Positions 3,172 through 53,456 of a stretch of 64,000 nucleotides of DNA are shown here, in pieces. Every line of letters begins with the position of its first letter. The first letter of the stretch is position 1. The notes under the pieces were generated by a model. The model had not been told where the DNA came from, made no database searches, and was given only the letters and a program-made list of their open reading frames with translations. A program made the translations under genes and the position numbers. Source of the stretch: a virus; IMG/VR virus record IMGVR_UViG_3300020048_000003; one strand, written 5' to 3'.

Positions 3172-3453
3172 ATGAAACATATTAAAATATTTGAACATTT
3201 TGAGCATTTTAAGGCTGGAGATTTAGTTAGATTAAAAATCTATTCAATTCCAGAAGATACTGAATACTTAAAGAAATTTGAAGATGATGTGTTTATTATA
3301 ATAGAAATAGATGATAATGATGAATTTCCAGTTACACTTAATTTCTATGACGTAAAAGAAGGAACTGCTCTTGGTTGGTTTGGTAATTTACAAGAAACAA
3401 ATATCAAACATTTAACTGAATATGAATTAGATGCAATAAAATATAACTTATGA
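3172..3453 (+). CDS. famA small protein
   Basis: (M)MKHIKIFEHF..AGDLV...YELDAIKYNL. Confidence 0.75.
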   Translation: MKHIKIFEHFEHFKAGDLVRLKIYSIPEDTEYLKKFEDDVFIIIEIDDNDEFPVTLNFYDVKEGTALGWFGNLQETNIKHLTEYELDAIKYNL

Positions 3454-3600
3454 AATATATAAAATTATTTGAAAATTTAAATAGCAGTATTCCAATTGGA
3501 TATTTTGTAATGTGTCAATATGAAGACCCAAATGGTGCTATGCTAAGACAATAGAAGAAATAGAATTTCTTAGAACAATAAATCAATATAATTTATAGTT
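3454..3600 (+). pseudogene. degenerate famA cassette
   Basis: ATGAAATATATAAAATTATTTGAAAAT start and ...CAATATAATTTATAG end retained but internal stops; ~49 codons. Confidence 0.55.
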
Positions 3601-29296: not shown

Positions 29297-29388
29297 ATTG
29301 TGGTGTGGGATTCGAACCCACGCGCCAGTGATTAACTGACCTGTTTGTTTTCAAGACAAATCTCTTACAACCGCTTGAGTAATCTTCC
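29297..29388 (-). tRNA. tRNA-Ser(UGA)-like: D-arm, anticodon arm (CU-UGA-AA), long variable arm and T-arm (GGTTCGAATCC) intact, 3' acceptor strand does not pair (possible pseudo-tRNA or junction)
   Basis: revcomp GGAAGATTACTCAAGCGGTTGTAAGAGATTTGTCTTGAAAACAAACAGGTCAGTTAATCACTGGCGCGTGGGTTCGAATCCCAC then ACCACAAT instead of ATCTTCC-N-CCA. Confidence 0.5.
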
Positions 29389-29536: not shown

Positions 29537-30295
29537 TTATAATTGTGATGTATTAATAGGTAGATTAAATGAAAAAGTACTACCCTTCTTTATTTTACTA
29601 CTAATTTGTAGTGTTCCGCCATTTAATTTTATGAAACTTTTACACAACTTCAATCCCAATCCGCTTCCCTTTTCTGCATTTGTTCCAAACGTTGTATAAA
29701 ATTCGTTATCAGATAAAATTCTATCAATATTATCTTGACTAATACCAATTCCATTATCCGATATTTCAATTTTTATAAACTCATTGTCAGTTGTCATGTT
29801 AATACTAATCTTACCGTTTTTATTTGTAAATTTTATGGCATTAGATAATAAATTTCTAACTACAGATTCTATCATTATTTTATCAGCGTATGCTGTGAAT
29901 ACTCCAGAATAGTTTTTTTCTACTGTAATATTTTTCTCAATAAATCTATAATCTAAAATCATAAATTTTTTATCAATTATTTCGTTTAGATTAATTATGA
30001 CAGGATTATATGAAAGTGCATTTTTATTATGTGTTGCCCACTGTAATAGATTTTCTAACAACTCAAATGTACGTTTAGACAAGTCTTTTATAAAACCCAA
30101 GTATTGATATAATTCAGATTCAGTTACATCATCCTTTTCTGCAATTAATTCAGATATTTGCATTATACTACCTATCGGACCTCGTAAGTCATGCCCAATA
30201 ATGGCTAAAATAGTATCCTTTGTCTCATTTAATACACGAAACTGTTCAAGAGATTCTTCTAAATCGTTACATCGGCAACCCGATTTTCTTTCCAT
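29537..30295 (-). CDS. histidine kinase core (HisKA + HATPase_c), no sensor/TM domain
   Basis: H-box IIGHDLRGPIGSI; N-box LLSNAIKFT; G1 DNGIGIS; G2 GSGLGLKLCKSFI. Confidence 0.8.
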   Translation of the reverse strand: MERKSGCRCNDLEESLEQFRVLNETKDTILAIIGHDLRGPIGSIMQISELIAEKDDVTESELYQYLGFIKDLSKRTFELLENLLQWATHNKNALSYNPVIINLNEIIDKKFMILDYRFIEKNITVEKNYSGVFTAYADKIMIESVVRNLLSNAIKFTNKNGKISINMTTDNEFIKIEISDNGIGISQDNIDRILSDNEFYTTFGTNAEKGSGLGLKLCKSFIKLNGGTLQISSKIKKGSTFSFNLPINTSQL

Positions 30296-36700: not shown

Positions 36701-36932
36701 TTAGTTTTTTCAATTTTTGTTTTCTAATTTCTTGTGTTGTATAGAAATATCTTTCTTTTTCGTATTTGGTTAGGTAGTATTCTATAGATGGATCAATTAT
36801 TATTAAGGCACCTCCAAATTCGTTTATTGATTTAATTCTATAAAAATTTCCTTTGGTTATCCATTTTGTTCTTTCAAAATTGGTTATCCAGTTTTTATTT
36901 TTTTTACATAGAAGTTGTTCGGGTGTTTTCAT
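36681..36932 (-). CDS. famB small protein
   Basis: RYFYTTQEIRKQKLKKLNENIDL. Confidence 0.8.
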   Translation of the reverse strand: MKTPEQLLCKKNKNWITNFERTKWITKGNFYRIKSINEFGGALIIIDPSIEYYLTKYEKERYFYTTQEIRKQKLKKLNENIDL

Positions 36933-37206
36933 TTAGTTTTTTCAATTTTTGTTTTCTTATTTGTTTGATATCAAATCTATTATGAAAATCTTTTATTTTC
37001 ATTAGAACGTGATAACCTTCTTTTATGTTAATTAGTTCTACATAAGGTATTGTACCTGAACCTTTTGTATTTTCTAAATTTTCAAAAGAGTCAATTTCAA
37101 ATGCTTCGTTTGCTGGAACGTTATGCCATTTATTTTCACCATGAGTTTGGTGCCATCTATATTCTTTAAAGGTATAGACTATATCGTGTATTTTAAATTT
37201 TTTCAT
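36904..37206 (-). CDS. famB protein
   Basis: KFKIHDIVYTF...DIKQIRKQKLKKLNENTR. Confidence 0.8.
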   Translation of the reverse strand: MKKFKIHDIVYTFKEYRWHQTHGENKWHNVPANEAFEIDSFENLENTKGSGTIPYVELINIKEGYHVLMKIKDFHNRFDIKQIRKQKLKKLNENTRTTSM

Positions 37207-37555
37207 TTAATTTAGTTAATTTATCTTTTCTCATTTCTTTAATTCCTGTATAGAAGTGTTTGCTAAAATAATCTTCACCTTTTTTTTTATCTTTTTTCCA
37301 GTTATTCCAGTTTATAGATGATACATTTTTATTTTGAACGGCTGCTGCTGGATTTATTATAAATCTTTCAAAATCTTTTTCAGTAAACATTGTTATAGAG
37401 TTTGGTATATTATCATCGTCAAAATCAAGTATATAGTATGTTTCACCTTTTTTCAAGAATGTATTTGGTTCTTTTTCAAAGATGCGGATTAGCCAGTATC
37501 TGGATAATCCAGCGTAGTCATTTTTCTTACATATAACTGGATCTCCTTTTTTCAT
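37193..37555 (-). CDS. famB protein
   Basis: MKKGDPVICKKND...GIKEMRKDKLTKLNEKI. Confidence 0.8.
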   Translation of the reverse strand: MKKGDPVICKKNDYAGLSRYWLIRIFEKEPNTFLKKGETYYILDFDDDNIPNSITMFTEKDFERFIINPAAAVQNKNVSSINWNNWKKDKKKGEDYFSKHFYTGIKEMRKDKLTKLNEKI

Positions 37556-37809
37556 ATTTCTATTTTTTGTAATTTTTTTAGTTTTTCTTTTCTAAAGTCT
37601 TTTATTGTTTTTGAATCTTCTTTTATTTGTTTTTTCACGAAGAATATATGTATTGTTAAACTAACTGCTGTACATATTAATGATATCCATATATTCCAGA
37701 AGTCTTGTATAAATAGGTTTATCAAGTTACACCAGAAGAAGAACAAATTTGCAAAGAAGAACAGTTTAATAAGTATTGAAAATATTGTTTTTATTATTTT
37801 TTTTATCAT
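37552..37809 (-). CDS. membrane protein with famB tail
   Basis: 2 TM + IKDFRKEKLKKLQKIEI. Confidence 0.6.
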   Translation of the reverse strand: MIKKIIKTIFSILIKLFFFANLFFFWCNLINLFIQDFWNIWISLICTAVSLTIHIFFVKKQIKEDSKTIKDFRKEKLKKLQKIEI

Positions 37810-37907
37810 TATTATGGTTATAATTATATTCTATAAATATAGGGGTAAACTTTTAATAAAAAAAGTTTTTATATATATGAATATAAAAAAAATTGTCTTT
37901 AATAGGT

Positions 37908-38201
37908 ATGAAGCATTTAAAATTATTTGAAGAAACAATCTTAAAGTTTCATATAGGTAATATCGTTAAGGTTACTAAGAATGTACGGTTGGATGAATAT
38001 AATCATATATTCAAAGTAGTAAATGTTAGGACTGATAATGTGAATAATACTTTTATGTATATGATAAAGGATATATCTAGATGTGATGATGGTATATTTT
38101 ATAGTGATTGTTGGGTATTTGATGATGATATTGAATTTGCGACAGTTGAAGATATAGAATTGGATGAGATGAAGGGTAATGCAAAAAAATATAATTTATG
38201 A
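37908..38201 (+). CDS. famA small protein (first of 42-gene array)
   Basis: track ORF 37893; likely start MKHLKLFEE...GNAKKYNL. Confidence 0.75.
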   Translation: MKHLKLFEETILKFHIGNIVKVTKNVRLDEYNHIFKVVNVRTDNVNNTFMYMIKDISRCDDGIFYSDCWVFDDDIEFATVEDIELDEMKGNAKKYNL

Positions 38202-38518
38202 AATATTTGAAAACATTTGAAAGTATTGATGAACCAAAAGAGGGTGATTATATTATTGCTAAATTGCCTAATCATTTGGCTTATAAAGATACTGCTGAGA
38301 TTTTTTGTCATAATAATATAGGTCAAATTATTGGTATTATTTATAATAATATTGATAAACCTATTTATAAGGTTAAGTATGAAAATGTACCTGCTGGACT
38401 TAAAATATCTAATTTAAATAACAATATTAGAGGGTTTTTTAAAAAGGATTTTGAATTGTGGAGTAAAGATAAAGAAGAATTAGAAGCAATGATAGCAGCG
38501 AAAAAATATAATATATGA
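38198..38518 (+). CDS. famA protein
   Basis: MKYLKTFES..EGDYII...NNIGQII...KEELEAMIAAKKYNI. Confidence 0.85.
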   Translation: MKYLKTFESIDEPKEGDYIIAKLPNHLAYKDTAEIFCHNNIGQIIGIIYNNIDKPIYKVKYENVPAGLKISNLNNNIRGFFKKDFELWSKDKEELEAMIAAKKYNI

Positions 38519-38598
38519 GATATATCAAAACATTTGAAAATAGTAATAAAAAAGAAGATTTATTTTTCAAATTAGATGCAAAAAAATACAATTTATGA
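38515..38598 (+). CDS. minimal famA cassette (27 aa: conserved N- and C-termini only)
   Basis: ATG AGA TAT ATC AAA ACA TTT GAA AAT ... GAT GCA AAA AAA TAC AAT TTA TGA = MRYIKTFENSNKKEDLFFKLDAKKYNL*. Confidence 0.5.
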   Translation: MRYIKTFENSNKKEDLFFKLDAKKYNL

Positions 38599-38936
38599 AA
38601 TATATTAAATTATTTGAAAGTGAGGATAAACCAAAGGTTGGTGATTATGTTATTTGTGATGAGTCTGAAGTATATATGTTAGATAATGAGTTGGATATAT
38701 TTTTAAGTAAGAATATTGGTAGGGTAGTTAATTATGATTTTGAAATGAAAAATGAATATATGGTACAATATGAGAATATTCCTAAAAATTTAGAACTTAA
38801 TTATTTTTCTCATGGTGATAGTTATGATGGTGGTTTTAAAAGATGTAGGGAGATGGCAAGAGATGAGATTAAGTTTTGGAATTCGGATAAGGAGACGGTT
38901 GAGGCTGCTCTTAATGCTCAAAAATATAATTTATAA
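38595..38936 (+). CDS. famA protein
   Basis: MKYIKLFES..KVGDYVIC..KNIGRVV...DKETVEAALNAQKYNL. Confidence 0.85.
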   Translation: MKYIKLFESEDKPKVGDYVICDESEVYMLDNELDIFLSKNIGRVVNYDFEMKNEYMVQYENIPKNLELNYFSHGDSYDGGFKRCREMARDEIKFWNSDKETVEAALNAQKYNL

Positions 38937-38938
38937 GA

Positions 38939-39298
38939 ATGAAGATAATGAGGTTTTATGAGAAAATATGGAATAATAAGGTTGAAACACCATATTGTGA
39001 TTATTATATTCCCTATGATGATTTGGTATTAATCAGGTATATTTTTGAAAAATTAGAAATCAATAGTGATTCTATAAATGTGATGATTACTACGATTAAG
39101 GAGTTTAAAGGTGAATTTGAAGGTTTATTTATTTTTTTATATTATGATGGTGATGGTGAATTTTGGTTAAATAGAAAAGATGTAAGTAAGGATGATATTA
39201 ATTGGGTTAGACAATATGAAGAAAAAGAAAATATTGAATATAAAGGTGAGATAAGATTGGAAGATCATGAGATTGAAGCAATAAAATATAATTTATAA
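38939..39298 (+). CDS. famA protein
   Basis: MKIMRFYEKI...HEIEAIKYNL. Confidence 0.8.
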   Translation: MKIMRFYEKIWNNKVETPYCDYYIPYDDLVLIRYIFEKLEINSDSINVMITTIKEFKGEFEGLFIFLYYDGDGEFWLNRKDVSKDDINWVRQYEEKENIEYKGEIRLEDHEIEAIKYNL

Positions 39299-39300
39299 AA

Positions 39301-39615
39301 ATGAAGATAATTAAACCTTATGAGGAATTAGATTTTACAAATTATAAAATTGGTAATTTATACAAATTATATGTTGATGGACATGATAAGGAAAAGAATA
39401 TTGATGTAAGTGGATTAGTGTTTATAGTTAAATTGGAAGTGAAGAGATTTGGTGGAAGTTATGGTCGGATAAGTGGTATTTGTGTTTCACCTGATGAGTA
39501 TAAGGGTCGGTATATGCCAATTAGGGGAGAAGAATTAGTGAAGTTATCTGAGCCTAGTGAAAAAGAAGTAGAAGAATATCATTTTTTAATGAATACAAGA
39601 AAATATAATTTATGA
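39301..39615 (+). CDS. famA protein
   Basis: MKIIKPYEE...FLMNTRKYNL. Confidence 0.75.
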   Translation: MKIIKPYEELDFTNYKIGNLYKLYVDGHDKEKNIDVSGLVFIVKLEVKRFGGSYGRISGICVSPDEYKGRYMPIRGEELVKLSEPSEKEVEEYHFLMNTRKYNL

Positions 39616-41434: not shown

Positions 41435-41716
41435 ATGAAGTATATTAAGAAGTTTGAAAGTGAAGATAACACAGAAAATGCTAAAATTGGTGATTTAGTA
41501 AAATTTACAGTTGATAAAACATATTTTGGTGGTAAGTTAAATATTAATTCTTTAAATAATTTATGGAAAATTACAAAAATTGATTATTGGTTACTGAATT
41601 CTGAAACGGTTTATCAGTTAACAGATTTAAAATCTACTGGATATTATAAAGCGTTGAGACATGAATTTAAGTTAATACCTGATTATGAGATAGATGCAGA
41701 AAAATATAATTTATAA
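41435..41716 (+). CDS. famA small protein
   Basis: likely start MKYIKKFES..KIGDLVK...PDYEIDAEKYNL. Confidence 0.8.
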   Translation: MKYIKKFESEDNTENAKIGDLVKFTVDKTYFGGKLNINSLNNLWKITKIDYWLLNSETVYQLTDLKSTGYYKALRHEFKLIPDYEIDAEKYNL

Positions 41717-41717
41717 G

Positions 41718-42062
41718 ATGAAGTTTATTAAACAATATGAATATACATATAAGCGTAGAGTTAATCACAAAAAGTATGTGATAGCAAAAGAAATAATATC
41801 AAAAGAAAAGAGATATGATTATTGCATTTATAAAATAGATCCATACATAAATAGTACCGAATATTATATTACAATAACAAGGGTGATGTTTTTTGATAAA
41901 GATTGTAAAGAAATTAAAAAACCTAAAACATCAGATAAAGTTAAAGATAGTTATTGGATATTTGATAAAGAAATTAATACATATTATTATGAAACTGATA
42001 CTTTAAATGATGCTATAGAACATTTAGAATTATCATTTGCTGGAAATAAATACAATTTATAA
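41718..42062 (+). CDS. famA protein
   Basis: likely start MKFIKQYEY...LSFAGNKYNL. Confidence 0.75.
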   Translation: MKFIKQYEYTYKRRVNHKKYVIAKEIISKEKRYDYCIYKIDPYINSTEYYITITRVMFFDKDCKEIKKPKTSDKVKDSYWIFDKEINTYYYETDTLNDAIEHLELSFAGNKYNL

Positions 42063-42170
42063 TGAAGTATATTAAAGAATTTGAGGCGAGGAAGGCTATT
42101 TTATACCAAGTAATGTAAAAAAGATTGTTGATGAGATTAATATGAATACGGATGCAAATAAATATAATTT
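42063..42170 (+). pseudogene. degenerate famA cassette
   Basis: ATGAAGTATATTAAAGAATTTGAG start, stop after 18 codons, C-terminal ...DANKYNL remnant retained. Confidence 0.5.
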
Positions 42171-42512
42171 ATGATAACTAAATTTAGAATATTTGAGAGT
42201 AATGAAGATGAGCCTGAAGTGGGTGATTATGTTATTTGTTATGAAGATGGACCAGTTCGTGATACTAGGATAAATACTTTTTTACTTGATAATATTGGTC
42301 AAATAATAGAAATAGATAATGAAGATGAACAGGAAAAATGGAAATTTTTGGTACAATTTGAAAATTTTTCAGATACTTATGTAAAAGCACATTATTTTAA
42401 TGATTATAATAAAGATGGTTGTAGGAAAATGTCAAAAGATGATATTAAATTTTGGAATTCAGATAGAAATATGTTAGAGGCAATAATTATCGCGAAAAAA
42501 TATAATTTATGA
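42171..42512 (+). CDS. famA protein (MITKFRIFES subtype)
   Basis: EVGDYVIC...DNIGQII...KDGCRKMSKDDIKFWNSDRNMLEAIIIAKKYNL. Confidence 0.85.
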   Translation: MITKFRIFESNEDEPEVGDYVICYEDGPVRDTRINTFLLDNIGQIIEIDNEDEQEKWKFLVQFENFSDTYVKAHYFNDYNKDGCRKMSKDDIKFWNSDRNMLEAIIIAKKYNL

Positions 42513-42862
42513 TAACTAAATTTAGAATATTTGAAAGTAATGAAGATGAGCCTAAATTAGGTGATTATGTTATTTGTAATGAATCTGAGACAGAGTTTGG
42601 TAGTATTAGTTCAGATAATTATCGTTTTCAGGTAGATGAGTTTTTAAGTAAAAATGTTGGACAAATAATAGAATTAATAGAAGATGATAGATGTGAATTT
42701 TTAGTACAATTTAATAATGTTCCAGATGATATAGCACCAATTTATTTTAATCATGGCAATAAAGATGGTTGTAGAAAAATGTCTAGAAGTGAAATTGAAT
42801 TTTGGAATTCAGATAGAGAAGTTTTAGAAGTAATGGTTGATGCAGAAAAATATAATTTATAA
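42509..42862 (+). CDS. famA protein (close paralog of 42171..42512)
   Basis: identical 45-nt start MITKFRIFESNEDEP; ...KDGCRKMSRSEIEFWNSDREVLEVMVDAEKYNL. Confidence 0.85.
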   Translation: MITKFRIFESNEDEPKLGDYVICNESETEFGSISSDNYRFQVDEFLSKNVGQIIELIEDDRCEFLVQFNNVPDDIAPIYFNHGNKDGCRKMSRSEIEFWNSDREVLEVMVDAEKYNL

Positions 42863-46483: not shown

Positions 46484-46761
46484 TGATAAAAAAATATAAT
46501 ATTTTCAAAAAAAAATTTAAGATTGGTGATTTAGTAAAACTAAAATCTGAAGGATATATTCCTGCTTATTGGGCATATTATAAAAATAGAGATAATATTG
46601 ATTTAAGTGTATTGGAAGTAGTATCGGTGGATTCAACAGATAAATTAGCATATGAAATTAAACCTATTAAACAGAATACTTTGGCGGAGTATTGGTTTGA
46701 AGAGTATATGTTGGAAAAATTATCTGATTATGAAATTGCAGCAATAAAATATAATTTATAA
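46483..46761 (+). CDS. famA small protein
   Basis: MIKKYNIF..KIGDLVK...LSDYEIAAIKYNL. Confidence 0.8.
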   Translation: MIKKYNIFKKKFKIGDLVKLKSEGYIPAYWAYYKNRDNIDLSVLEVVSVDSTDKLAYEIKPIKQNTLAEYWFEEYMLEKLSDYEIAAIKYNL

Positions 46762-47315
46762 TGAAGTATATTAAAGAATATTTTAATCCTATAAAGGATC
46801 ACAAAGAAAATAGATTACCAACAATAGGTGATTATGTGATATTTACTGATGATTTTTATGATGAAAAAATCAAAGATATTAGTTATGTTGGAAAGCATAG
46901 TTTAGATAATAAATTATATAGAAATGTAATTGGTGAAATTGTTGATTATTATCCTGGTTATCCAACAAAATATTTTGTATATTTTGATAAAAATGAATTT
47001 TGGCGTGAACAATATGTGGCTTCTATAGAAGATATTAAAAGTTATTCTAAAGTAAAAGAAGATTTAGAAAATCTACCAAATGTGGGAGATTATGTAATAT
47101 TAGGTAGTGATAATTATATTTATATTTGTAAAGTAATATCAAAAGAAAAATCAGATTTAAGGTGGACTAATTATAATTATACCGTTAAAAAGTTAAATCC
47201 AGGTCCGCATGATGGTAAAGGTGTAATTAATACGAATGATGATTCAATAAGATATTGGTCTAAAGATATAGGAGAATTAGAAACTATAATAGATGCAAAA
47301 AAATATAATTTATGA
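46761..47315 (+). CDS. famA protein with internal duplication (184 aa)
   Basis: MKYIKEYFN; two GDYVI segments (PTIGDYVIFTDD / PNVGDYVILGSD); ...ETIIDAKKYNL. Confidence 0.8.
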   Translation: MKYIKEYFNPIKDHKENRLPTIGDYVIFTDDFYDEKIKDISYVGKHSLDNKLYRNVIGEIVDYYPGYPTKYFVYFDKNEFWREQYVASIEDIKSYSKVKEDLENLPNVGDYVILGSDNYIYICKVISKEKSDLRWTNYNYTVKKLNPGPHDGKGVINTNDDSIRYWSKDIGELETIIDAKKYNL

Positions 47316-48370: not shown

Positions 48371-48867
48371 AATACATTAAAAAGTTTGAAAATGATAGAT
48401 ATTATTCATCTGATTCTCAGAAATTAGAAGGTTATAACGGTAAGATTCTTATTAATATACCATCTACAACATATTTTAAGAGTGCAATTAGATTTCAAAT
48501 TGTTTTTGTTCATGAAGTATATAAACACAAACTTATATTTAAAGGGTCTGATAATGAAGATAGATATGAATATCAAGTTCTCGCAGATAATATTATTAGA
48601 TGTAATTCAGATGATTCTATTAATTTTACTTATAGATGGGATCAGGCTCATAATGAAGATGGATTTAAAAGATTAGAATTTATAACGGTTGAACAATTTT
48701 ATAATCAACATACGGATGTTTTTGTAGGATTATTAGAAGCAGCAATAGAAGAGAGTAATAATACTAAATTTTCAGAGCAACATAGATCTGAGGTAAAGAA
48801 GATAATAGATAAAATGACAATACCTGAAACTGAACATATTATTGGAGCAAATAAATACAATTTATGA
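48367..48867 (+). CDS. famA protein (166 aa)
   Basis: MKYIKKFEND...HIIGANKYNL. Confidence 0.8.
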   Translation: MKYIKKFENDRYYSSDSQKLEGYNGKILINIPSTTYFKSAIRFQIVFVHEVYKHKLIFKGSDNEDRYEYQVLADNIIRCNSDDSINFTYRWDQAHNEDGFKRLEFITVEQFYNQHTDVFVGLLEAAIEESNNTKFSEQHRSEVKKIIDKMTIPETEHIIGANKYNL

Positions 48868-49247
48868 AATATATTAAATTATTTGAAAGTGAATATAAAG
48901 GAGATTTTTGGCTCATTAGAGCAGATGATCCGTATTTATCTATTAGTATAGATAAACTTAAATTACCATTAAAACAAAAAAATTATTTAAAAAATAATGG
49001 ATATATAAACGGTAAGGATACATATTATGATTTTGATCATAACAATAATGGTGAAATTCTTAAAATCAAAAAAGTTTATATACCAGATGCAAATTTTGAT
49101 GTAGGTAAATATTCTGCTAGTTGGATGCCTTATAAAGAAAATGATAATAAATATGCATTTGAGACATTTGAAACAATGGGGTTAGTTTATAAAGGTGAAG
49201 TTGAAGTTGAAGATTGGGAAGTTGAAGCATATAAATATAATCTATAA
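48864..49247 (+). CDS. famA protein
   Basis: MKYIKLFES...WEVEAYKYNL. Confidence 0.8.
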   Translation: MKYIKLFESEYKGDFWLIRADDPYLSISIDKLKLPLKQKNYLKNNGYINGKDTYYDFDHNNNGEILKIKKVYIPDANFDVGKYSASWMPYKENDNKYAFETFETMGLVYKGEVEVEDWEVEAYKYNL

Positions 49248-49908: not shown

Positions 49909-49962
49909 TAGAATATTTTTGGTTTTTGATATAATAGGTGCTACAAAAAAATATAACATATA

Positions 49963-50142
49963 ATGAAAAAATTTACAGAAACAGCAACATATATACAACC
50001 AGAAAAACAGTATAGAAAATATTTCAAATTTATTGAAGATAAATTTTTAAATATCCCTTTTGGTCGTTTAGTTTTTGATGAGATAAATGATTCTGTTGTT
50101 AAAATATATTTAAGGCGTGATATGAAAAAATACAATTTATAA
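49963..50142 (+). CDS. short famA member (59 aa, below track cutoff)
   Basis: manual: MKKFTETATYIQPEK...VKIYLRRDMKKYNL*; preceded by remnant ...GATKKYNI*. Confidence 0.55.
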   Translation: MKKFTETATYIQPEKQYRKYFKFIEDKFLNIPFGRLVFDEINDSVVKIYLRRDMKKYNL

Positions 50143-51247: not shown

Positions 51248-51591
51248 TAAAAGTATTTGAATTATTTAATACAAATAATGAAAATAGAATTTTCATCACC
51301 AAAAGTAAAGTTGATGGTCCTATATGTTATCGTCCAAATAAGATACCAGATGAATATAAACTTGCTTATGAAAATATGAAATTTCATGTTGGTGATCATG
51401 TTTGGTATTCTGAAAATTTTCAATTTAAATATGCTGAACATAGAATAATTGAAATTGTTGAATTGTTTTGTGAAGAAGAAGATGAATACTATTTATTTAA
51501 AAATAATGAAAATAGTGGAACATGGGCAGGCGAAAAAGAATTAATATTAATACCTGATTATGAGGTAGATGCAGAAAAATATAATTTATGA
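51244..51591 (+). CDS. famA protein
   Basis: MIKVFELFN...HVGDHVW...PDYEVDAEKYNL. Confidence 0.8.
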   Translation: MIKVFELFNTNNENRIFITKSKVDGPICYRPNKIPDEYKLAYENMKFHVGDHVWYSENFQFKYAEHRIIEIVELFCEEEDEYYLFKNNENSGTWAGEKELILIPDYEVDAEKYNL

Positions 51592-52277: not shown

Positions 52278-52646
52278 ATGAAGTATATAAAATTATTTGA
52301 ATATAAAGATAAAAATAAAATTGAAGTAGCAAAATTTGTTTTACTTAAAGCCGAAAGAGGAAATAGTTATTGGAATAATTGGTATGGTATAAATCTTGGG
52401 AAATATCCTGATGATGATGAATCATATAAAATCGGTATATTAACTCCTAATGCAGAAGAACTTGATACTAATCATTATATGAAAGGAAAGTTTTTACATG
52501 TAAATAAATATTATCTTGAATTTTACGAAACCATTGATAGTTTTTATCAAGATTTATCAATTTATTATGATATAGATTTTGACGAATTAAAGGAACAAAT
52601 TGAAATGTTTGAAGCAATTGTAAATGCTGAAAAGTATAATCTTTAA
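52278..52646 (+). CDS. famA protein
   Basis: MKYIKLFEY...FEAIVNAEKYNL; 3' end overlaps convergent gene. Confidence 0.8.
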   Translation: MKYIKLFEYKDKNKIEVAKFVLLKAERGNSYWNNWYGINLGKYPDDDESYKIGILTPNAEELDTNHYMKGKFLHVNKYYLEFYETIDSFYQDLSIYYDIDFDELKEQIEMFEAIVNAEKYNL

Positions 52647-53236
52647 ACAGCATAAACATTAACCTCATCTATTTCTAACCAAGCACCTTTACCGAAATAT
52701 TCTATTATCCAATCGCTATATGTGCCAGTTCCTCCATAACCAGTAGAAGATGCAGTAGTTGCACCTGTAGAAGGATTATATGCAGTTATTTCTGCCTGTA
52801 TCCATGGACTCCCAAATCCAGTTCTAACTAATCTAAGAGCAAACCCTACACCATAATCAAGATTAGTTCCCATTGTAAAACTAAAAGAAGTGGGATTACT
52901 TGTTGGAGTAGCAATACTAGAAGCGCTTGTTGTATTTAATCCCGCAACATTTACGTAAAATCCAATAGATGAAGCACCAGTCCAAAGACCAATAGTATTT
53001 AAGGTGTATAGCGTAGCATTAGATGTATTTTTAGTTATAGAACTTGATACAATATCACCATACGCAGTAACTACATATATTGGAATGTTACTTCTATATA
53101 AAAAGGTAACATTGTATTGCGCATTTGCTATCGTGGTAGTACTACCAAATCCTGGATACGCACAACCGTCATAATTATCTTCTCCTCTCTGTGCATTTCC
53201 TGCAAATCCATTTCCTGTTACTATACTAAATGGCAT
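52643..53236 (-). CDS. Gly/Ser/Thr/Asn-rich beta-type protein (structural/fiber/lectin-like), atypical G+C-richer codon usage
   Basis: track ORF 52643..53290; probable start MPFSIVTGNGFAGNAQ; composition 20+% S/T, many G, Y. Confidence 0.55.
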   Translation of the reverse strand: MPFSIVTGNGFAGNAQRGEDNYDGCAYPGFGSTTTIANAQYNVTFLYRSNIPIYVVTAYGDIVSSSITKNTSNATLYTLNTIGLWTGASSIGFYVNVAGLNTTSASSIATPTSNPTSFSFTMGTNLDYGVGFALRLVRTGFGSPWIQAEITAYNPSTGATTASSTGYGGTGTYSDWIIEYFGKGAWLEIDEVNVYAV

Positions 53237-53249
53237 ATGTTTTATTTTT

Positions 53250-53456
53250 TTAAGGTAATTGTACAGCAGCCCAATTATCAGCAAGTCCATCTGAATTTGT
53301 ATCTATCCAATCGGTGGTTTCTGCACCATCACCATTTACAATTAATTGTAATGGATTAAAAAGATAAACTAAATGATTATTTCCTGATTCGGGTGTTGGT
53401 TTAAATTCTACTTTACCAGAATTTGCTTGATCGTATACTACTCTAATTTGTGCCAT
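53250..53456 (-). CDS. small acidic protein upstream of 52643 gene, same atypical composition
   Basis: MAQIRVVYDQANSGKVEF...TDWIDTNSDGLADNWAAVQLP; 13-nt spacer to downstream gene. Confidence 0.5.
   Translation of the reverse strand: MAQIRVVYDQANSGKVEFKPTPESGNNHLVYLFNPLQLIVNGDGAETTDWIDTNSDGLADNWAAVQLP

Follow-up and report, generated by a model that had tools for sequence, protein, structure and literature searches.

The famA arrays and their setting

We analyzed a 64-kb stretch of viral DNA (the window), most of which is filled by two families of small genes, famA and famB. The window contains approximately 72 famA genes, all on the plus strand, with a conserved N terminus (M-K-Y-I-K-x-F-E) and a conserved C terminus (A-x-K-Y-N-L, then the stop codon). 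Successive C-terminal modules usually lie 250 to 600 nt apart, with short exceptions of 80, 112, 145, 55, and 179 nt. An overlap with the next gene was found for 45 of 70 famA genes (35 ATGA and 10 TAATG), and the array starts that we inspected lacked a Shine-Dalgarno-like sequence upstream. Codon usage is the same in the K-Y-N-L motif as in the gene cores (TAC, 11% versus 10%; AAC, 20% versus 8%; five different leucine codons), from which we conclude that the termini are conserved as protein and not as a DNA signal. Neither famA nor famB proteins had a match in Pfam or PHROGs. A famA1 subfamily profile recovered 2,806 clusters at an E value of ≤0.001, and the best 150 of these 2,806 clusters were 96 to 243 aa long and were nearly all end-to-end matches to the profile.

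The second family, famB, numbers around 100 copies, with a near-C-terminal [RK]KEKLKKLNE motif (e.g., RKEKLKKLNE) and cores of the GD.V..I type. Its stretches lie at 3.6 to 5.9, 8.7 to 13.4, 19.8 to 25.4, 30.6 to 37.8, 53.8 to 61.2, and 63.3 to 63.9 kb and use both strands. GC skew is extreme and tracks gene orientation (20 to 26 kb and 38 to 52 kb), with values of about −0.6 where famB is on the minus strand and +0.4 to +0.57 where famA is on the plus strand.

The G+C content of the window is approximately 25%. A phage origin is indicated by a GIY-YIG/NUMOD endonuclease gene, by a histidine-kinase-like gene matching PHROG families, and by a 215-aa ORF that is 38% identical to part of the 735-kb uncultured phage LR756501, the sole link found to a deposited phage genome. 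This Ser/Thr/Gly-rich ORF (52643 to 53290, minus strand) interrupts the famA array. The histidine-kinase-like gene (29537 to 30295, minus strand; 252 aa, HisKA and HATPase_c) sits within a stretch from 25.4 to 30.5 kb with few ORFs and a G+C fraction of 0.30 to 0.33. An Rfam tRNA call was made at 29301 to 29388 (minus strand; 36 bits, 88 nt), and ARAGORN found no tRNA anywhere in the window. The 64 kb hold no head genes. Since the locus described below sits on contigs of 209 kb and 286,618 nt, the source, an uncultured phage, is probably huge. Neither that locus nor a famA1 protein matched in megablast and tblastn searches of deposited phage genomes, relatives in IMG/VR reached approximately 43% identity at most and had no synteny, and a metagenome scan returned just distant relatives, with the MKYIKLFE pattern dominating the matches.

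A 27-codon gene between two full-length cassettes

At 38515 to 38598 (plus strand), the array contains a gene of 27 codons, which we call the mini-gene. Its ORF is intact from ATG to TGA and encodes MRYIKTFENSNKKEDLFFKLDAKKYNL. The upstream neighbor is a full-length famA1 gene of 106 aa (38198 to 38518, plus strand; aatatATGAgat) that ends in WSKDKEELEAMIAAKKYNI and whose TGA overlaps the ATG of the mini-gene. The downstream neighbor is a full-length famA1 gene of 113 aa (38595 to 38936, plus strand; aatttATGAaat) whose ATG overlaps the TGA of the mini-gene. Both ends of the mini-gene therefore carry an ATGA stop-start overlap.

In an alignment with 26 full-length famA1 proteins, the mini-gene product covered residues 1 to 9 and the last 18 residues, and the entire core was absent. 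The N-terminal module (N-module) consists of nine codons (38515 to 38541, plus strand; MRYIKTFEN), and its MRYIKTFE fits the famA and famA1 pattern M-[KR]-Y-I-K-x-F-E. The C-terminal module (C-module) consists of 18 codons (38542 to 38598, plus strand; SNKKEDLFFKLDAKKYNL and the stop) and fits the famA1 pattern ...(N)KEDL....A.KYN[LIM] at the stop codon. The missing core spans approximately 80 to 100 residues in famA1 (GDYV ... NIG ... Y.V.Y ...) and is predicted to form an SH3/Tudor-like barrel; the viral fold library BFVD returned no significant match. The joint between the modules (38541/38542) reads TTTGAAAAT/AGTAAT and lies at the inner edges of both. The ORF and the alignment thus confirm the initial annotation, which had described a 27-codon gene made of the famA ends alone, in frame and ATGA coupled on both sides.

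The mini-gene sequence is known from three assemblies in all, the window's included. Logan contig L055 is 100% identical to positions 36928 to 38600 and spans the deletion joint, ENA contig L056 (209 kb, k141) has an identical mini-gene and differs from the window only by two mismatches (34574 and 34584), and the identical 27-aa peptide was called on a JGI contig of 286,618 nt. An assembly or sequencing artifact, which the initial annotation had named as grounds for discarding its reading of the gene, is therefore not borne out. The Logan assembly does end at the 3′ junction of the mini-gene, which might be taken as a sign of an artifact. Logan uses a k-mer length of 31, however, and the break is accounted for by a 40-nt exact repeat (38584 to 38623 and 48853 to 48892) that exceeds this length. 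With L055 crossing the joint and two k = 141 assemblies and the JGI contig in agreement, we consider an artifact to have next to no probability.

Longer alleles at the mini-gene position

Comparison with related genomes, which the initial annotation had proposed as a check for a full-length cassette, placed a longer gene at the mini-gene position in three sister assemblies, in each case immediately upstream of the ortholog of the 113-aa gene. This downstream gene served as the synteny anchor, and the long gene is ATGA coupled to it in both sister assemblies with resolved boundaries. All three sister contigs are cut and the 5′ end of the long allele was not recovered; hence, the lengths that follow are minima. 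ENA contig L058 (ERZ27262927) is 99.5% identical to window positions 38541 to 39538 and has an identical 113-aa gene. The opening 39 nt of this contig bear no relation to the N-module; the ORF runs on upstream as NTIKISKHDNFIS-SDNKEDLFFKKDAKKYNL, which gives an allele of at least 31 aa. A homology search with the 113-aa protein identified the variant P0002 (91% identity) on contig L066 (ERZ27262921), where a partial gene of 84 aa (KEFINNNIGVVTHVVNNFGLMIYLVKYDNMPYKIDEWLNIHGSRDALFKVNQKNTIKISKHDNFISSENKEDLFFKKDANKYNL and the stop) lies directly upstream of P0002 and is ATGA coupled to it. This allele of at least 84 aa has the usual famA1 core motifs (NIG and Y.VKY) and a tail ending in NFISSENKEDLFFKKDANKYNL; the tail is common to L066, L058, and the mini-gene. 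On NCBI contig GCA_041443065.1, a gene of at least 68 aa occupies the position beside another variant of the anchor, P0156.

The long sister alleles end in 18 codons (SDNKEDLFFKKDAKKYNL and SENKEDLFFKKDANKYNL) homologous to the C-module of the mini-gene. For the N-module of the mini-gene, these alleles offered no counterpart within their final 97 to 255 nt. A full-length homolog of 123 aa, P0009, is 72% identical to the 84-aa fragment of L066 and starts with MRYLKTFEE, like the mini-gene; its locus, on contig L067, is not syntenic with the mini-gene locus, and P0009 is usable only as a full-length protein model. We rejected two other readings of L058. Its 5′ end includes TCAAAACAT of the N-module in another frame and could have been an indel-degraded mini-gene, but L066 shows a genuine full-length core there. 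L058 could also have been a mosaic or recombinant, but it diverges from L066 at similar rates across the cassette tail and the downstream gene.

The long allele is carried both by L058, the nearest sister, and by the more distant L066, and as judged from these alignments, the long state is ancestral and the window lineage is derived. The converse, in which the short form was an ancestral empty acceptor site and the sisters gained a core by insertion, strikes us as highly improbable. Nothing specific supports it, although the direction of change does rest on just three sister fragments. Against it stand the long alleles of both L058 and L066, the typical end-to-end family architecture of the long form, which has a homolog elsewhere at 72% identity, and the lack of any visible insertion machinery or target duplication.

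Origin of the mini-gene

Because the sister assemblies carry a longer gene at the same position, we read the mini-gene as an internal deletion of a full-length cassette. On the sequence comparisons, it is very probably the vestige of a normal famA1 cassette, formed by a strain-specific in-frame internal deletion, and not a family member in its own right. The ancestor would have been a famA1 cassette of approximately 115 to 125 codons with a disordered N-terminal MRYIKTFE tail, an SH3/Tudor-like β-barrel core, and a helix at the C terminus (...NKEDL....A.KYNL). In the window lineage, a single in-frame deletion of roughly 90 codons would have removed the entire core and left codon 9 (or 14) fused to the final 18 (or 13) codons. 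The reading frame was kept by this deletion, so that both ATGA overlaps survived, and the upstream and downstream genes would stay translationally linked through the short translated ORF. The peptide would have no function of its own and would be tolerated since expression of its neighbors is undisturbed.

With the sister contigs cut, the breakpoints given here are approximate, and the N-module may derive from this cassette or from another upstream of it. We suggest that the join was nonhomologous or mediated by microhomology. Candidate sites are two ...AA(A/T)AAAGAA stretches (N/K-K-E), the first immediately preceding the usual E-P-x-x-GDY motif and the second within NKEDL. Since many famA1 members read FE-x(3-6)-E-P-x-x-GDY, the FENSNKKE of the remnant may be native 5′ sequence that was joined at ...AAAGAA to the tail (NKE/DL). 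If this is correct, the 5′ end of the long allele would read ATGAGATATATCAAAACATTTGAAAATAGTAATAAAAAAGAA-CCN..., and one later mutation (AAA to TTA) would be left. The window lineage has four substitutions of its own (38545, 38550, 38572, and 38573), all nonsynonymous and all within the C-module of the remnant. Four window-specific differences in the 58 nt of the remnant versus none in the next ∼940 nt (Fisher P = 1e-5) exceed neutral decay. This excess would be consistent with a breakpoint lying more to the right, in which case two of these differences vanish, or with another process.

The initial annotation had attributed the loss of the core to junction-to-junction recombination and had taken the mini-gene as direct evidence that the arrays turn over through their conserved ends. 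The loss itself is borne out by the sister alleles, but homologous recombination between the ends as its route, with the mini-gene as a direct footprint of array turnover, appears quite unlikely. There are reasons to entertain it. The junctions are strongly conserved in DNA, with 16 matches in the window to a degenerate 26-nt pattern versus 0 expected, and one pair of junctions is identical across 40 nt (38584 to 38623 and 48853 to 48892). The N-module and the C-module, however, are not homologous, with similarity limited to AAATATA, and the observed joint lies at their inner edges. In an array ordered C(i-1)-N(i)-core(i)-C(i)-N(i+1), an exchange that pairs one N-module with another, or one C-module with another, restores a normal junction; whole cassettes are deleted or duplicated without a scar, and an N-module is never set directly on a C-module. 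Such exchange cannot yield the fusion seen here, which argues for an illegitimate or microhomology-mediated join, and the mini-gene does not support the inference of turnover through the conserved ends. An MKYNL ORF followed by a stop, the predicted product of an exchange at AAATATA (KY/KY), was not found. The region can also be parsed as consecutive S-KDKEELEAMIAAKKYNI-MRYIKTFEN and S-NKKEDLFFKLDAKKYNL-MKYIKLFES units, as if a junction unit of 80 nt, comprising a C-module tail and an N-module, had been duplicated in tandem. The two units are just 69% identical, within the 63 to 72% of unrelated junctions, and the long sister allele ends in a tail orthologous to the C-module of the remnant; a duplication is hardly credible.

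We also weighed whether the 27-aa peptide is a functional microprotein under selection, for example, a carrier of two terminal signals without cargo, and find this very unlikely. In its favor, the ORF is intact, in frame, and coupled to both neighbors, and its sequence is identical in three assemblies. The peptide is absent from relatives, however, and the sister strains have the long allele (at least 31, 68, and 84 aa). Among 5.8 billion clusters, that of the peptide is a singleton from one contig, and a search with a padded 40-aa query returned the mini-peptide itself as the sole match; gene callers seldom report ORFs of <30 aa, which makes this absence weak evidence. The initial annotation had held that conservation of the peptide as a gene in homologs would speak against a remnant, and no relative has the peptide. 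The lineage-specific changes are all nonsynonymous, and the three other short cassettes in the window are frameshifted or startless. In an AlphaFold2 model of a full-length famA member, the N-module is disordered, and without the barrel, the remnant would retain a floppy tail and a C-module helix deprived of its packing partner. The somewhat broader view that the remnant is kept, either as a relay that keeps the downstream string expressed or as a cargo-less carrier, is also unlikely. If the carrier version were true, the N- and C-modules would be autonomous signals, such as ones that target a protein to the capsid. Our preferred reading is an internal, in-frame deletion within a full-length cassette.

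Other lesions and candidate exchanges in the arrays

Three further short cassettes look like pseudogenes from their sequence. A truncated, frameshifted cassette lies at an array end (3450 to 3598, plus strand) and has an N-module and 26 codons before a stop, with the C-module (...INQYNL and stop) in another frame. At 42062 to 42173 (plus strand; the length of 37 codons), MKYIKEFE is followed by the tail GEEGYFIPSNVKKIVDEINMNTDANKYNL and stop in another frame, and this copy is identical in contigs L056 and L071. The copy at 49909 to 49963 (plus strand) is an orphan C-module (...IIGATKKYNI and stop) with no start codon or N-module. All three remnants listed in the initial annotation thus exist, although the lesion at 42062 is a frameshift and not a stop alone, and the first copy, recorded as having internal stops, has the stop and also an off-frame C-module and therefore a frameshift. 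The 38515 copy alone among the four short cassettes is intact and in frame, and together the four form a decay series. A gene of 184 aa at 46761 to 47315 (plus strand) contains two famA1 barrel domains (two GDYV...W/YS.. units) with the C-tail and N-module between them absent; this fusion is the opposite lesion to the mini-gene, with the junction lost and the core kept.

Several sequence pairs have the appearance of exchanges. The 40-nt repeat (38584 to 38623 and 48853 to 48892) links otherwise unrelated famA junctions, for which the pair mean is 29/40 and the next best pair 37/40, and it could reflect gene conversion between junctions. Module-sized stretches with 92% identity occur at 41663 to 41714 and 51538 to 51589 and at 42154 to 42245 and 42492 to 42583, in genes that are otherwise far less similar or unalignable. 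These two pairs are candidate mosaic cassettes and are the place to seek real exchange between conserved ends. On contig L067, from a distant relative, two adjacent famA genes (1711 to 2031 and 2033 to 2350) start with the same 21 aa (MKYIKQYENNMSDKVKPGDYV), after which their sequences have nothing in common; from this pattern they look like chimeric cassettes with a breakpoint in the GDYV motif.

The mini-gene provides a dated, strain-level example of the loss of a cassette from a very large paralog array. The probable route of loss, an internal in-frame nonhomologous deletion followed by decay, corrects the earlier inference of exchange between ends. The famA family, which comprises 2,806 clusters and lacks a model in both Pfam and PHROGs, is a more interesting subject than the remnant.

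Comparison with known systems

Remnant paralogs formed by deletion are a general phenomenon in viral multigene arrays. The mini-gene resembles them as a tandem paralog cut to a fragment, polymorphic between close strains, and located beside frameshifted copies. It differs in that the deletion is exactly in frame, both overlaps are kept, and a complete small ORF of terminal modules is left. Strings of genes coupled by ATGA or TAATG are likewise a general feature of prokaryotes and phages; the famA overlaps are of this kind, and the mini-gene keeps both of its own.

The nearest published mechanism to the proposal of recombination between ends is that of the PeSLs of T4-type phages (PMC2839356), intergenic promoter and stem-loop cassettes associated with the shuffling of modules within hyperplastic regions (Arbiol et al. 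2010, PMC2839356; Comeau et al. 2014, PMC4122927). Both systems have short conserved flanks around small nonessential genes whose content varies between close relatives. The famA junctions differ in being coding sequence with overlapping stop and start codons and conservation at the protein level. The window has 47 promoter-like sites versus 45.7 expected and 0 terminator-like sites, and folding of the junction RNA gave no structure (z = +0.95). The mini-gene is also not the product expected of exchange between such repeats.

The internal proteins of T4 carry an N-terminal capsid targeting sequence (CTS), MKTYQEFIAE (PMC9026906, PMC3012670, 10.1101/2021.01.19.427310). As in famA, a short conserved N-terminal tail precedes diverse small proteins, and the modeled disorder of the famA N-module is what would be expected of a propeptide. 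CTS-like famA N termini include MKTYENFITD (7301), MRTYESFIFK (8258), MKTYKQFNEA (292), and MIKTYEGFFD (19089). Some match the CTS at 6 to 7 of 10 residues by eye, a length too short for statistics, and the MRYIKTFEN of the mini-gene matches worse. The famA family differs from the T4 proteins by its invariant C-terminal KYNL and its >70 copies, and the likeness rests on approximately 10 residues. From these termini, famA proteins may be packaged or ejected, a lead that concerns the family and not the mini-gene. The remnant delimits, in nature, terminal modules that are detachable, which would be useful if the modules prove to be targeting signals. Set beside these systems, the mini-gene is ordinary gene decay in a hypervariable array, unusual only in its perfect frame and its coupling to both neighbors.
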